Notes: a model not told the origin generated them from the letters alone. 32,000 nucleotides of DNA from Pasteurella multocida (GCF_900187275.1 NZ_LT906458.1:1830001-1862000), one strand, 5' to 3'. Shown: positions 54 to 4,795, counted from the stretch's first letter. Made by a program: numbers and translations.

Positions 54-1583
54 TTAAAATGTTTTACTGAAGGTTAAATAAATCCGATTCCGGTCATATT
101 CGGAAAAAGGATTGTTACTGGTGGTTTTTTGATATGCCCAAGTGATTTTAGGCGTGATCCCCAACCAGTGAAGACTACGATGCCAAATCGTAAAATTGAC
201 ACCGTATTCGCGATTTTTTTGCACAACTTTAAAGAAACTCGGCGCGAAAATCATATTCTTTTCTGCTGAAGGTGCTCGATAAGTACGCGTGGCATAGCTT
301 GTTTGTAAACGCGTTGAAATGCCTTTCGGCCATTCTTGCCCCCAACCTAGACGTATTCCTTGACGTTCAAAAGCATAGGCTTTTAGCCGGGTATTTTTTT
401 GATAATAATCGAATCCAACAAACCAAAATTGTTGGCTATTTGGCATATATATCAGAGTATTGCTAATGGAATAGCTATTTCCATTTGAGCTTTGCCGTTG
501 AGGTTGGATATAACGTTGTTCGGTATATTCCAGAACCGTGGAGATTTTCCAATTGGGTGTCAACCAATAATCCACGTCAAGGTTGATACCTGAGCTTTTA
601 GAATAACGGTGTAATGTACGTGCATCCTTTGTTGCATTTTCACCGCCCACATACCAAAATTGTTCCACGAAAGGTATAAGTTTCACTTCTGTTTTGGCAT
701 TACGGTAACCACCACCTAGATTGAGGCGAGTCGAAAACTCATCATACTTATGATTATCCCAATAATATTTTCCATTGATATCGGCACTAAATTCTGTGAA
801 AAAGCCGTGGGCTAATGACCAATTTTTACTTAAATTAATAAAATAACTTAAACCATGTGCTTTTTCTGGTTGGCTTGAAGGGGTGAAGCCTTCCGCTTTG
901 GTGCCTTTAGGCGGTGCATTATTGACATTGTTCTCATGCAAATAATTTACTCCGCCATACACATTCCAGCTATCGCGTTGGTTAATCGCATCAATATAGC
1001 TATCAATGAGGGTCAGTAAAGGCGCGGGTAAGTTTTCTGAACGCAGTTGGTTAAATTGTGCTTTCGCGGCTTCATTTTCACGGTTTTGCGTTAAGGCGAT
1101 AGCGAGTTGTAAGCGTGCAGGTTGTAAATTGGGCTTTTCTGCAATAATTTGGCGATATAAACGTACTGATTCACTTAATTTTCCTTGTTTACGAGCAACC
1201 ATTGCCTGTGCCCATTTTAATAACAGCGGATCAGGCGATTGTTGGGCATAAATGGGTAACAGAATTTCCGCACCGCGCATATCATTATTTTTTAATGCCG
1301 GGATTAAGGCGCGAAGCACCAAATCAGGTCTGCTAGCAAGTTGTTCAATGGTCAACGAAATTTGCTGACTGCTCGCACTTGATGTGGGTTCAGTCGGTTT
1401 CGGTTTCTGAGAAAAGAGATGCTGTTTAGGTGACGTCTGGGAAAATGTTTCATCTGGTCGGCTATTATCTACGGGGATCACAGTATTCGCCCACGCGGTG
1501 TTATAAATAACGCCAGAGAGAAAAACAAGGCGACCGAAAAAAGGTAAAAAAGTAAGCGGTTTTAAGTTTATCATTAAGTTCAT
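54..1583 (-). CDS. Slam-type outer-membrane translocon (surface lipoprotein assembly modulator; N-terminal TPR region + C-terminal DUF560-like beta-barrel)
   Basis: 509-aa ORF. N-terminal signal peptide ending ...VIYNTAWA. Helical TPR-like repeats follow (RLYRQIIAEKPNLQPARLQLAIALTQNRENEAAKAQFNQL). The C-terminal ~300 aa is aromatic- and Gly-rich with alternating-polarity strands and ends ...IYLTFSKTF (terminal Phe, an OMP signature). The size and two-domain layout match what I recall for Neisseria Slam1/Slam2. It is co-oriented with two TbpB-fold lipoprotein genes upstream. Confidence 0.8.
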   Translation of the reverse strand: MNLMINLKPLTFLPFFGRLVFLSGVIYNTAWANTVIPVDNSRPDETFSQTSPKQHLFSQKPKPTEPTSSASSQQISLTIEQLASRPDLVLRALIPALKNNDMRGAEILLPIYAQQSPDPLLLKWAQAMVARKQGKLSESVRLYRQIIAEKPNLQPARLQLAIALTQNRENEAAKAQFNQLRSENLPAPLLTLIDSYIDAINQRDSWNVYGGVNYLHENNVNNAPPKGTKAEGFTPSSQPEKAHGLSYFINLSKNWSLAHGFFTEFSADINGKYYWDNHKYDEFSTRLNLGGGYRNAKTEVKLIPFVEQFWYVGGENATKDARTLHRYSKSSGINLDVDYWLTPNWKISTVLEYTEQRYIQPQRQSSNGNSYSISNTLIYMPNSQQFWFVGFDYYQKNTRLKAYAFERQGIRLGWGQEWPKGISTRLQTSYATRTYRAPSAEKNMIFAPSFFKVVQKNREYGVNFTIWHRSLHWLGITPKITWAYQKTTSNNPFSEYDRNRIYLTFSKTF

Positions 1584-1632
1584 CTGAAAAAAGTCATTAT
1601 ATTCTGTTTATTATTGGTGTGGGCTTTTGCGA

Positions 1633-2235
1633 TTAAGGCATTGCAATGGCATACAAGCGGTAACTAACTTGACCGGTTATTTTTTCTTTGAGTATTGTCC
1701 AGTTCTCTGGGGCAATAATCGGTTTGTCTTTTTCCGTTTCCACATAAACCAATGCGTCAGGTTTTAGCCAATTATGTCGAGCTAATAAATCAACTGTTTG
1801 CTGTGCTAGACCGAAGTGAAAAGGCGGATCAATAAACACAATGTCAAAGTGCGGTGCAGTTTGGGGTTGATTTAAAAATTGCAGGCTATTTTGATTGATG
1901 ACGTTAGCCTGTTCTGCATTGCATTTTAACGTAGCAAGATTTTTGCTGAGTTGTGTCGCAACATTTTTATCTAGCTCTAAAAACGTCACCTGTTTTGCCT
2001 GACGTGAAAGTGCCTCAAAACCTAATGCACCACTGCCAGCAAAGCAATCAAGGCAGGTCGCATCGACAATGTAGGGCATGAGCCAATTGAATAAGGTTTC
2101 TTTAACCCGATCACCTGTTGGACGTAATCCATCCGCAGAAAGCACGGGCAATTTCCGCCCGCGCCATAATCCTGCAATGATACGTACTTCACCTTTTGGT
2201 GTGCTAGATTTGAGTTTTTGTGTTGGTTTTTTCAT
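1633..2235 (-). CDS. rsmD: 16S rRNA (guanine966-N2)-methyltransferase RsmD
   Basis: 200-aa ORF with SAM-binding motif DCFAGSGALGFEALSRQA and N-methyltransferase motif FIDPPF. The length is typical of RsmD/YhhF. rsmD is the classic divergent neighbour of ftsY in gamma-proteobacteria. Confidence 0.9.
   Translation of the reverse strand: MKKPTQKLKSSTPKGEVRIIAGLWRGRKLPVLSADGLRPTGDRVKETLFNWLMPYIVDATCLDCFAGSGALGFEALSRQAKQVTFLELDKNVATQLSKNLATLKCNAEQANVINQNSLQFLNQPQTAPHFDIVFIDPPFHFGLAQQTVDLLARHNWLKPDALVYVETEKDKPIIAPENWTILKEKITGQVSYRLYAIAMP
1847..1855 (+). repeat. Uptake signal sequence (USS) core AAGTGCGGT
   Basis: Exact 9-mer read in the sequence, inside rsmD. Confidence 0.9.
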
Positions 2236-2285
2236 AAGGTTATAAAATAAATAGCGGTATGCGAAAATACCATATCATCATGTGT

Positions 2286-3490: not shown

Positions 3491-3525
3491 GAAAAGATAA
3501 AAAAAGGCGTTTTTTAAACGCCTTT
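3491..3525 (-). terminator. Rho-independent terminator immediately after SLP-2
   Basis: Perfect 10-bp stem aaaggcgttt (3503-3512) / aaacgccttt (3516-3525) with a 3-nt loop. On the minus strand the hairpin is followed by TTTTTATCTTTTC. It lies directly downstream of the SLP-2 stop codon (3532-3534). Confidence 0.8.
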
Positions 3526-3531
3526 TATCTT

Positions 3532-4578
3532 TTATTTACCCGTAGAGTTTTCTGCTGGTTTTTCATCTGATTTTTCAGCGGCTAATACTCCAATCCATGT
3601 TTCGGCTTTAGCATTACCGAAAAGGTACTTGTGATCAGCTTTTCCTTTTTCTGAATCAGCTAATATATAATTAAGATTAGCTTTATCCCCTTTTTTAATT
3701 GTACCGAGAAGATGTTCTAAGACAGGTTCAATAGTTGAACTACCATGATTACCTTTTTCTATTTTAAAAATTTCTTCTTTGTTAGTTTCTCGACTATTGC
3801 CATTCTCAGAGCGATAAATAGAACCTGATATACTACCGTTGTCATAGAGAATATTCACATCACCATAATTTATTAAGCCATTATTAGATAATTCCGTATT
3901 ACTAATAGGCGCATAAATAAACCCTTTTTCTTTTTTATAATAAGCCTTGAACTGAGTAGATTGGTCTGGGCTTTTAAAATCCGTATTGATGGCATAAAGT
4001 AATTCCACATTTTTATGCGCGCGACTATCATCAATATTGTGACGATAACCATAATAGCCTACTTCATTACCATCACTGCCTAATAAAGTAAATTTATACT
4101 CCACTCCTGAATTATCACCTAAGTTAAGGGTGATATGTTCTGGCTCTTTTTTATATTTATCTGGTGTACTACTGTTTCTATCAGCATTTTCCACATGTTC
4201 TAGTTTATAAACCGTTACATGATTTTTATTTTCATTTTTTGCAGCACAAACCGATTTTGCCTCACAAGCGCCTTCCCATTTTTCTTGTGCAGAAGGAGGG
4301 GACATTCCCATACTGTCATTTGCAGGTGGTGCAGGTGGTGCAGGTGGTGCAGGTGGTGCCTCCTTTGCGCCAGTATCTGGTGCTTGGTTTTTAGGTGGTG
4401 CCGGTATATTTGGTGCAGCATCTGGTTGTTGATGCGCTGGTGGTGCAGGTTGAATCGGCTGTACTGGTGGAGGCGCATTGTTTCCGCCATTGCCGCTACC
4501 GCCACCACCGCCACCGCAAGCGATTAAAAGGCAAGATAATCCGAAGACAGTTGTTAATTTGATGATTGCTTTTTTCAT
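3532..4578 (-). CDS. Putative Slam-dependent surface lipoprotein, TbpB-like C-terminal beta-barrel (SLP-2)
   Basis: 348 aa counted from the MKKAIIKL start at 4578 (RBS AGGGAA upstream). The ORF track extends to 4596, but that adds MYREYT ahead of the signal peptide. Lipobox LLIA|C with Cys21, then Gly6 and a ~75-aa Pro/Ala-rich linker that includes (APP)x4. The folded region aligns by eye with SLP-1: HVTVYKLEHV / NVTVFTFVKY, YKFTL / YNFTL, KAYYKKEKGFIYAP / ATYYQEDGFIYSV, YGDVNILYDNGSISGSIYR / YGNVTLTFRNGKIYGEIYR, and the C-terminus KYLFGNAKAETWIGVLAAEKS / KYVVGVGKAEKYYGLLFAEKS. Confidence 0.7.
   Translation of the reverse strand: MKKAIIKLTTVFGLSCLLIACGGGGGGSGNGGNNAPPPVQPIQPAPPAHQQPDAAPNIPAPPKNQAPDTGAKEAPPAPPAPPAPPANDSMGMSPPSAQEKWEGACEAKSVCAAKNENKNHVTVYKLEHVENADRNSSTPDKYKKEPEHITLNLGDNSGVEYKFTLLGSDGNEVGYYGYRHNIDDSRAHKNVELLYAINTDFKSPDQSTQFKAYYKKEKGFIYAPISNTELSNNGLINYGDVNILYDNGSISGSIYRSENGNSRETNKEEIFKIEKGNHGSSTIEPVLEHLLGTIKKGDKANLNYILADSEKGKADHKYLFGNAKAETWIGVLAAEKSDEKPAENSTGK
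4321..4359. repeat. In-frame 9-bp tandem repeat (tgcaggtgg x4 plus partial) encoding (Ala-Pro-Pro)n in the SLP-2 linker
   Basis: Four exact consecutive copies at 4321-4329, 4330-4338, 4339-4347 and 4348-4356, followed by a partial tgc. Confidence 0.95.
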
Positions 4579-4795
4579 AGTGTATTCCCTATACATGTTG
4601 CATAAGCAGATTGCTTATATCCTTATTAAAAATGTGCATATTTTACACATTTTTATTATTTATACAGCTAAATTTGTATAAATTTTGCAAATTTTATGGA
4701 AAGCAAGGAGATTTTTTTCATCGTTTAAGTATTCAATGTTAAAATGAGCAATCAATTTTTGAATTCAAAATATGTTTAGGCAATGAGAAAAAATT

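Follow-up and report, generated by a model that had tools for sequence, protein, structure and literature searches.

Probable cargo of the Slam translocon encoded beside rsmD in Pasteurella multocida

Slam proteins act as translocons for surface lipoproteins (SLPs), with Skp as the holdase, and their cargo is proposed to carry a specificity motif at its C-terminus (PMC9090332). A stretch of 32,000 nucleotides of the Pasteurella multocida genome (GCF_900187275.1, NZ_LT906458.1:1830001-1862000; hereafter, the window) carries at one end a slam gene and two lipoprotein genes, and rsmD, a gene for a 16S rRNA methyltransferase, separates the former from the latter. Which lipoproteins does this translocon export, and what is the place of a housekeeping gene within the cluster? 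The locus is the already described Slam/SLP cluster of P. multocida (PM1514-PM1518 of Pm70). The actual module is plpP-plpE-rsmD-slam-pmSLP-1, with three cargoes, two of them presumed and one adjoining slam, and we consider it probable that a single Slam exports PlpP, PlpE and PmSLP-1 from this known locus.

Genes of the Slam locus

An initial annotation, made from the sequence alone, had described four co-oriented genes on the minus strand, rsmD included. The open reading frame (ORF) map of the window returned the four ORFs at the same coordinates, and RsmD was recognised by a match to TIGR00095 above cutoff, which places a housekeeping gene inside the cluster. Read from right to left in the window, the gene order is plpP-like, plpE, rsmD, slam and pmSLP-1, the latter also termed fIbp (factor I binding protein). 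The features of the locus are as follows:

1-29, minus strand: 5′ end of pmSLP-1/fIbp, first 29 nt (ATGCAGTATTTTGACATCAAAAAATCTCT); third cargo gene, cut by the window edge
54-1583, minus strand: slam (PM1515 orthologue), 509 aa; signal peptide, TPR domain, DUF560 barrel, terminal Phe
1633-2235, minus strand: rsmD, 16S rRNA m2G966 methyltransferase, 200 aa (TIGR00095, E 1.8e-69; PF03602, E 2.2e-69)
2286-3293, minus strand: plpE (PM1517; SLP-1 of the initial annotation), 335 aa; Cys21, disordered linker of about 100 aa, probable handle, 8-strand barrel
3294-3531, minus strand: plpP-plpE intergenic region, AT-rich; terminator-like hairpin and promoter-like hexamers
3532-4578, minus strand: plpP-family gene (PM1518-like; SLP-2 of the initial annotation), 348 aa; Cys21, Gly run, Pro/Ala-rich linker, six-strand handle, eight-strand barrel
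4321-4359, minus strand: 9-bp tandem repeat CCACCTGCA, 4.3 copies, in frame, encoding Pro-Pro-Ala units of the PlpP linker (Tandem Repeats Finder)
4579-4795, no strand: divergent intergenic region between plpP (minus) and ftsY (plus) in the ORF map, boundary of the cluster; one promoter-like site at 4682-4655, a consensus match only

Both lipoprotein genes lie less than 3 kb from slam and on the same strand. The longest ORF of plpP reaches nucleotide 4596; the ATG at 4578, preceded by a Shine-Dalgarno-like AGGGA, is the start used in the gene calls of identical public contigs.

The 509-aa protein had been proposed to be a Slam, and the profile searches bear this out. It matches PF04575 (SlipAM, formerly DUF560) with an E value of 2.9e-113 (378.6 bits, cutoff 22), the match spanning residues 206-509 and the whole model (positions 1-288 of 288), and PF24575 (TPR_Slam) with an E value of 6e-34 (117 bits, cutoff 35.2). 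As read by eye from the translation, its N-terminus is signal-peptide-like (...VIYNTAWA/NT); its C-terminus is ...FSKTF. A solved Slam homologue was not found in the PDB, where generic TPR matches only were obtained. On its domain composition the protein is classified as Slam, the outer-membrane protein of type 11 secretion. An identical Slam protein adjoins fIbp on 274 blocks of the sequence collection.

To identify the gene truncated at the window edge we made use of contig L002 of P. multocida, which is 100% identical to window bases 1-1700. There, pmSLP-1/fIbp begins 24 nt past the slam stop codon (11555-12571), and the ORF continues to 338 aa, 100% identical to PDB 9b3h chain B. This protein, fIbp, is the renamed PmSLP-1 of P. 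multocida (structures 9b3e and 9b3h), and the window derives from a PmSLP-1-carrying strain of the bovine-respiratory type. The published fold of PmSLP-1 consists of a handle of six strands and a barrel of eight (PMC12080921), and both the PmSLP variants and the complex of fIbp with factor I have been characterised (Islam 2023, Nguyen 2025; PMC10075479, PMC12080921). When a Slam and its cognate lipoprotein are expressed in E. coli, the lipoprotein is displayed on the cell surface, both for PM1515 with PM1514 (PMC5449769) and for the Slam of strain 36950 with PmSLP-1 (PMC12080921), and PM1515 is necessary for the surface display of PM1514 (PMC5449769; PMC12080921).

As the window edge cuts pmSLP-1, the only cargo with demonstrated Slam-dependence was hidden from the initial annotation, and two of its claims derive from this. 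The proposal of a surface-display module was right with regard to a Slam accompanied by presumed cargo of the TbpB class, and wrong with regard to the number of two cargoes, the third being encoded downstream of slam. Neither does the statement hold that a search restricted to adjacent genes would fail to pair translocon and cargo: Hooda 2017 (PMC5449769) paired PM1515 with PM1514 precisely by adjacent-gene curation and showed the display of PM1514 in E. coli to be Slam-dependent. In the same figure, PM1517 and PM1518 appear as the 'two other SLPs' of the cluster. The locus has hence been known since its publication in 2017, and Slam export of PlpE is assumed in the field; a 2025 study by TraDIS, a method that sequences transposon insertion sites, refers to PlpE and the product of the neighbouring gene as 'putative SLPs', PlpE being putatively exported by Slam (PMC12721544).

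PlpE, PlpP and PmSLP-1 as one lipoprotein family

In a search of 5.8 billion proteins, the 335-aa lipoprotein was found to be 91% identical to the representative of a cluster annotated as P. multocida outer membrane lipoprotein/PlpE. It is PlpE (PM1517), a surface-exposed vaccine antigen. The 348-aa lipoprotein belongs to the PlpP (PM1518) family, with homologues in P. multocida, Bisgaard Taxon 45 and P. oralis, some of which are named PlpP or Lipoprotein P. There is a clash of names in the literature, as PM1517 is PlpD and PM1518 is PlpE in Hooda 2017 (PMC5449769), whereas PM1517 is PlpE in Hatfaludi 2012 (PMC3390355); the sequence data obtained here side with PM1517 being PlpE and its neighbour a member of the PlpP family. 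In the latter study, PM1517 was the sole protective antigen among 71 tested, and PlpE was localised at the bacterial surface by immunofluorescence. More recently, PlpE has been reported to bind the host protein ABCF2 via Asp-123 (2026; PMC13529201). The Asp reported as critical, numbered on a PlpE of 336 aa, is Asp-122 in the 335-aa allele, within the motif NVDKDNV. The initial view that the function of the cargo is not evident does not stand for PlpE, a protective antigen (PMC3390355) and reported ABCF2 binder (PMC13529201).

Both lipoproteins show the features that had been read from their translations. Their lipoboxes, LLVAC21-S in PlpE and LLIAC21-G in PlpP, fit the pattern [LVI][ASTVI][GAS]C, which was taken from PMC10075479; position +2 is S or G, hence not Asp, and a GGGG run follows Cys21. 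A linker modelled as disordered comes next, and eight C-terminal strands end in GLLFAEKS or GVLAAEKS.

PlpE and PlpP share 29% identity (E 8e-26), and each of them is about 26-27% identical to PmSLP-1. When the PDB was searched by sequence (with phmmer for PlpE), both lipoproteins matched PmSLP-1/fIbp (9b3e/9b3h) only, PlpE over residues 116-332 (E 4e-16) and PlpP over residues 123-342 (E 1e-3). The alignments cover both domains and end in a common ...G(V/L)L..EK motif; the last barrel strand is conserved in the three proteins as [YW]xG[VL]Lxx-EK. A profile built from PlpE and PlpP recovers PmSLP-1 with an E value of 8.5e-30. The PlpE/PmSLP family profile has 91 representatives among 1.84 billion proteins, and where members were looked up by name, which covered 10 of the 91 representatives, all the named ones are from Pasteurellaceae and none from Mannheimia. 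We thus regard PlpP, PlpE and PmSLP-1 as diverged paralogues, three in number, within a single family restricted to Pasteurellaceae. Its plan comprises a lipobox with Cys21, a Gly run, some 90-110 residues of disordered linker, a handle (of six strands in PmSLP-1 and in the PlpP model) and a C-terminal barrel of eight strands. PlpE and PlpP were assigned to no family of NCBIfam, where matches to fusolisin and similar proteins were rejected as spurious, being confined to the signal peptide or linker and far below cutoff.

Structures were predicted with AlphaFold2 on a 25-sequence alignment of the family, and the predicted local distance difference test score (pLDDT) was taken as means of 10-residue blocks. 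The PlpP model shows six strands followed by eight within residues 121-340 (pLDDT about 63-95, mostly above 80), in agreement with the strand numbers published for PmSLP-1: the handle comprises six strands in residues 121-198 (above 80), and the strands of the barrel occupy residues 211-337 (mostly above 80). In Foldseek its best match was 9b3h_B (E 2.2e-12, template-modelling score 0.81, root-mean-square deviation 3.0 Å), followed by LbpB, HphA and TbpB. In the PlpE model the eight barrel strands lie within residues 212-330 (pLDDT about 60-90, mostly above 70); the top match was 9b3e (E 7e-11), the TbpB C-lobe came next and lipocalins lower. By fold, both models thus resemble PmSLP-1 first, and then TbpB, LbpB or HphA, as would be expected from the TbpB-type eight-stranded barrel initially proposed. 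Residues 1-98 of PlpP were modelled at pLDDT below 50, and the low N-terminal values in the models are consistent with a disordered linker.

The kinship with fIbp probably does not extend to its ligand. From the published list of hydrophobic fIbp residues that contact factor I (PMC12080921), only about 2-3 of 10 are conservatively kept in PlpE/PlpP (I175, V214 and, loosely, W205). Binding of factor I was consequently rejected as the default expectation for PlpE and PlpP; with the contact residues mostly replaced, these proteins probably bind other ligands.

The linker of PlpP contains in-frame repeats. The PPA repeat at 4321-4359 consists of 100% matches (score 78), and GGT/GGC Gly-codon repeats lie at 4494-4515. 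PlpP alleles of other strains have, in the alignment, fewer PPA units and 5-10 Gly, which suggests that the length of the PlpP tether may vary by slipped-strand events. Along bases 1-5000, repeat scans detected nothing beyond these two kinds of in-frame repeat and the terminator palindrome described below, and no ends of mobile elements.

Cargo range of the Slam and position of rsmD

Having assigned the genes, we compared the locus with its counterparts. Loci of P. multocida were gathered by exact-protein look-ups, as a scan of contigs for Slam gave relatives in Bisgaard taxa and Pasteurella sp. and no representative of P. multocida; the Pasteurella/Bisgaard taxon loci add up to 14 (L001-L006, L009-L015 and L018), L004 ending before the upstream genes. 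The order ftsY <> SLP gene(s)-rsmD-slam-(SLP)-trmL recurs across the clade, the linkage of both lipoprotein genes to slam is kept across the 14 loci, and in every one that spans rsmD this gene lies between SLP gene(s) and slam. The ftsY-rsmD slot holds from one to six SLP paralogues across Pasteurella. Bisgaard Taxon 45 has one SLP gene upstream and one downstream, Pasteurella sp. PK-2025 two upstream and one downstream, and Bisgaard Taxon 46 (L006) two upstream and none downstream, whereas in P. oralis (L018, 6687-14466) six tandem PlpE/PlpP/PmSLP members, one of them split by a frameshift, precede rsmD and slam.

Within P. multocida the interval between slam and trmL also varies. In L009-L011 (9274-10055) and L015 (6567-7334) it contains no pmSLP and, on the opposite strand, a toxin-antitoxin pair resembling higB/higA; in L012-L014, insertion sequence fragments and a restriction enzyme gene. 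In the pmSLP-less strains L009-L011 and L015, slam is full length. Among strains its ratio of nonsynonymous to synonymous substitution rates (dN/dS) is 0.10-0.20, and 0.10 between two pmSLP-less lineages. As slam is under purifying selection in strains that lack pmSLP, it should still have cargo in them, for which the SLPs encoded upstream are the obvious candidates. We infer that PlpE and PlpP make use of this Slam.

Side observations were made on individual loci. In the complete P. multocida genome CP199421.1 (L001), plpE carries a CAA>TAA nonsense change (8834) and pmSLP-1 an 11-bp deletion (12312) that leads to a 255-aa product, matching the published truncated PmSLP-1.2; plpP and slam are intact. 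Homopolymer sequencing errors were considered as the origin of these split genes and rejected, the lesions being a nonsense change and an 11-bp deletion instead. A Slam homologue found on a contig labelled Streptomyces cinereus JCM 3040 (L008) lies on DNA which is 95-96% identical to the Moraxella osloensis chromosome (L007) over 17 kb; that contig is probably assembly contamination.

According to the model that we favour, which follows the published Slam pathway (PMC9090332), the lipoproteins would be exported by Sec and lipidated at Cys21 by Lgt, Lsp and Lnt and, with no Asp at +2, handed over to Lol, while Skp would keep them unfolded as a holdase. The outer-membrane barrel of Slam would recognise their C-terminal barrel or its motif, thread the cargo out and flip the lipid anchor to the outer leaflet, so that the protein stays tethered on the surface by its lipid. 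The variable handles would there bind different molecules of the host: bovine factor I in the case of PmSLP-1 and, reportedly, ABCF2 in that of PlpE.

The intergenic regions were scanned for transcription signals. Just past the plpP stop codon (3526..3502, minus strand), the terminator scan detected a hairpin followed by a T-run, with an 11-bp stem (AAAAGGCGTTT/AAACGCCTTTT) and then TTTATCTTTT, and promoter-like hexamers lie ahead of plpE (3486..3457), these being consensus matches only, at chance rate. The same scan detected no terminator-like site between plpE, rsmD, slam and pmSLP, which are separated by gaps of 50, 49 and 24 nt. With a hairpin past plpP only, plpP may be monocistronic and plpE-rsmD-slam-pmSLP may be co-transcribed. 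The sigma-70 scan gave 19 sites, 16 being expected, and is uninformative. No match to a Fur box was found at up to 3 mismatches, hence there is no sign of iron regulation.

Several observations weigh against export of all three lipoproteins by one Slam. The literature searched contains no experiment in which PlpE or PlpP is compared with and without Slam, and the mLife paper on PlpE is silent on Slam. A plpE mutant is fully virulent (PMC3390355) and, by TraDIS of strain VP161, Slam, PlpE and the second SLP are dispensable in mice (PMC12721544); taken together, these results point to a biological role that is host- or niche-dependent, or redundant. For a family member in P. canis, no slam lies within 6 kb, so the linkage is not universal. 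The promoter and terminator calls mentioned above are consensus matches at chance frequency. Residues 1-200 of PlpE, the handle region included, were modelled at pLDDT below 50: the prediction of a handle plus a barrel was thus borne out in full for PlpP and, for PlpE, with respect to the barrel, the handle of PlpE aligning nonetheless in sequence to that of PmSLP-1. Finally, Pfam yielded no match, TbpB_B_D included, for full-length PlpE and PlpP at E≤1 or for their C-terminal halves at E≤10. The initial annotation had proposed the TbpB_B_D model as a check, and the outcome was negative; as the experimentally validated PmSLP-1 likewise has no Pfam match, this result is uninformative and does not define the class.

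Some of these points would fit a narrower role of Slam, namely that it serves the adjacent PmSLP only, PlpE and PlpP reaching the surface by another route (LptDE- or Bam-assisted, or spontaneous) and lying near slam by shared ancestry. PmSLP is the sole protein tested with Slam, plpP apparently forms a separate transcription unit closed by a terminator of its own, and the P. canis gene is a precedent for a member of the family without a nearby slam. A LptDE route for surface lipoproteins has reportedly been described in other bacteria. Against this stand the pmSLP-less strains, which keep an intact slam under the purifying selection reported above, and the barrel with its last-strand motif, which is thought to be the recognition element of Slam and is common to all three proteins. 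P. multocida is not known to have TbpB, so that few other candidate cargoes of Slam are known, which also counts against a Slam dedicated to PmSLP. We regard this alternative as improbable.

A further alternative concerns rsmD, which could be a functional part of the module, co-transcription coupling, for instance, ribosome maturation or growth rate to lipoprotein export. The order SLP(s)-rsmD-slam is kept in P. multocida, Bisgaard Taxa 45 and 46, Pasteurella sp. PK-2025 and P. oralis, and the scan placed no terminator-like site before or after rsmD. Moreover, the first 12 or so codons of rsmD vary in P. multocida with the upstream SLP allele (L012, L015), and L006 contains between its two SLP genes (5548-5835) a partial rsmD copy (residues ~6-98) together with a remnant of a lipoprotein signal peptide. 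These last two observations are more simply accounted for as recombination breakpoints, and the 5′ end of rsmD seems to belong to the units of duplication or exchange. In Actinobacillus porcitonsillarum (L017), a family member lies 10 nt past slam in an unrelated context and without rsmD. The divergent orientation of rsmD and ftsYEX is considered the ancestral gammaproteobacterial arrangement (yhhF-ftsY in E. coli), which suggests that the SLP genes were inserted around a gene already in place. A functional role of rsmD in export is thus very unlikely. The slam-SLP pair of A. porcitonsillarum does without it, and we infer passenger status for rsmD, most simply a housekeeping gene resident at this site that the expanding SLP/slam cluster would have engulfed.

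It is equally hard to credit that the two upstream lipoproteins, PlpE and PlpP, face the periplasm as ordinary lipoproteins of the outer membrane and resemble the TbpB class in fold only: they have no Pfam match, eight-strand barrels of lipocalin type are common and lipocalins do appear lower in the Foldseek list, but PlpE, a protective antigen, was seen by immunofluorescence on the surface of the bacteria (PMC3390355), and the best matches in both sequence and structure are to the surface-displayed PmSLP-1 and not to generic barrels.

Within the framework of one Slam exporting three lipoproteins, the diversity of the upstream genes allows a more far-reaching proposal. Some P. multocida carry a divergent allele in which the PlpE signal peptide precedes a different mature domain (P0003, P0004), and in L015 (P. 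multocida GCA_015354635.1, 3434-4279) a single hybrid gene (protein P0037), in which the 5′ part of plpP is fused to a 3′ part of P0004 type, replaces the two tandem genes; it looks like the product of recombination between paralogues, and in this strain slam is intact downstream and higBA occupies the position of pmSLP. We put forward, tentatively and as a possibility we would not yet favour, that the ftsY-rsmD slot is a recombining, diversity-generating array of cassettes for Slam-exported lipoproteins, and that PlpP is a further binder of host factors. The array would hold one hybrid gene in some P. multocida, two genes in the window and six in P. oralis, with alleles swapping together with the 5′ end of rsmD. 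The paralogues would share signal peptides and barrels, and each handle would bind a different host factor; PlpP, the most variable, would be exported by the Slam of fIbp, and its ligand would possibly be a complement regulator.

Outside the locus, the window offers an ordinary metabolic context. Nucleotides 7898-22879 contain a cluster for the catabolism of 4-hydroxyphenylacetate: beside hpaB/hpaC and an AraC regulator, it specifies a TRAP transporter, enzymes of the FAA-hydrolase family, a LigB dioxygenase, CHMI, an aldolase and aldehyde dehydrogenases. The genes pckA, hslO, zwf and pgl come next. At 24872-25630 (minus strand), a 252-aa ORF without Pfam match, lying in a stretch of low GC content (0.34-0.37), encodes a protein with a signal peptide and the C-terminus ...GYKF, which looks like a small outer-membrane beta-barrel protein.

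Significance and likeness to known systems

P. multocida is a pathogen of cattle and poultry, and PlpE and PmSLP are leading antigens for subunit vaccines against fowl cholera, bovine respiratory disease and haemorrhagic septicaemia. The differences among strains at this locus, by cassette swaps, gene fusions and pseudogenes, bear on vaccine coverage. If the translocon is shared, loss of Slam would strip the cell of all three antigens, which bears on Slam as a target. As a discovery the present analysis adds little, the cluster having had a published map, names and a partial characterisation since 2017.

The closest known system is the Slam/PmSLP system of P. multocida, which is the same locus: the slam gene of the window adjoins a pmSLP-1 identical to the crystallised protein. 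PmSLP-1 has the lipobox, the Gly run, the disordered linker, the eight-strand barrel and the last-strand motif of PlpE and PlpP, and a six-strand handle like the one modelled in PlpP and probable in PlpE. The difference lies in gene position, plpE and plpP being upstream of slam beyond rsmD, whereas pmSLP-1 is immediately downstream. With regard to published PlpE (PM1517; Wu 2007, Hatfaludi 2012, Shang 2026), the protein is the same, and the 335-aa allele has a one-residue gap in the linker.

Slam1 of Neisseria, with TbpB, LbpB and fHbp, and Slam2, with HpuA, belong to the same translocon family (DUF560 plus N-terminal TPR), the P. multocida Slam being 32% identical to Neisseria Slam1 (Hooda 2017, PMC5449769), and their cargo is likewise a lipoprotein with a C-terminal eight-strand barrel. 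Unlike the Neisseria cargo, PlpE and PlpP are single-lobed, have no detectable sequence similarity to TbpB or fHbp, and are not iron-uptake co-receptors; no Fur box was found. Lastly, PlpE of Mannheimia haemolytica and OmlA of Actinobacillus pleuropneumoniae share the name and, as P. multocida PlpE, are surface lipoprotein vaccine antigens, their reported identity to the latter being about 22% (PMC3390355).

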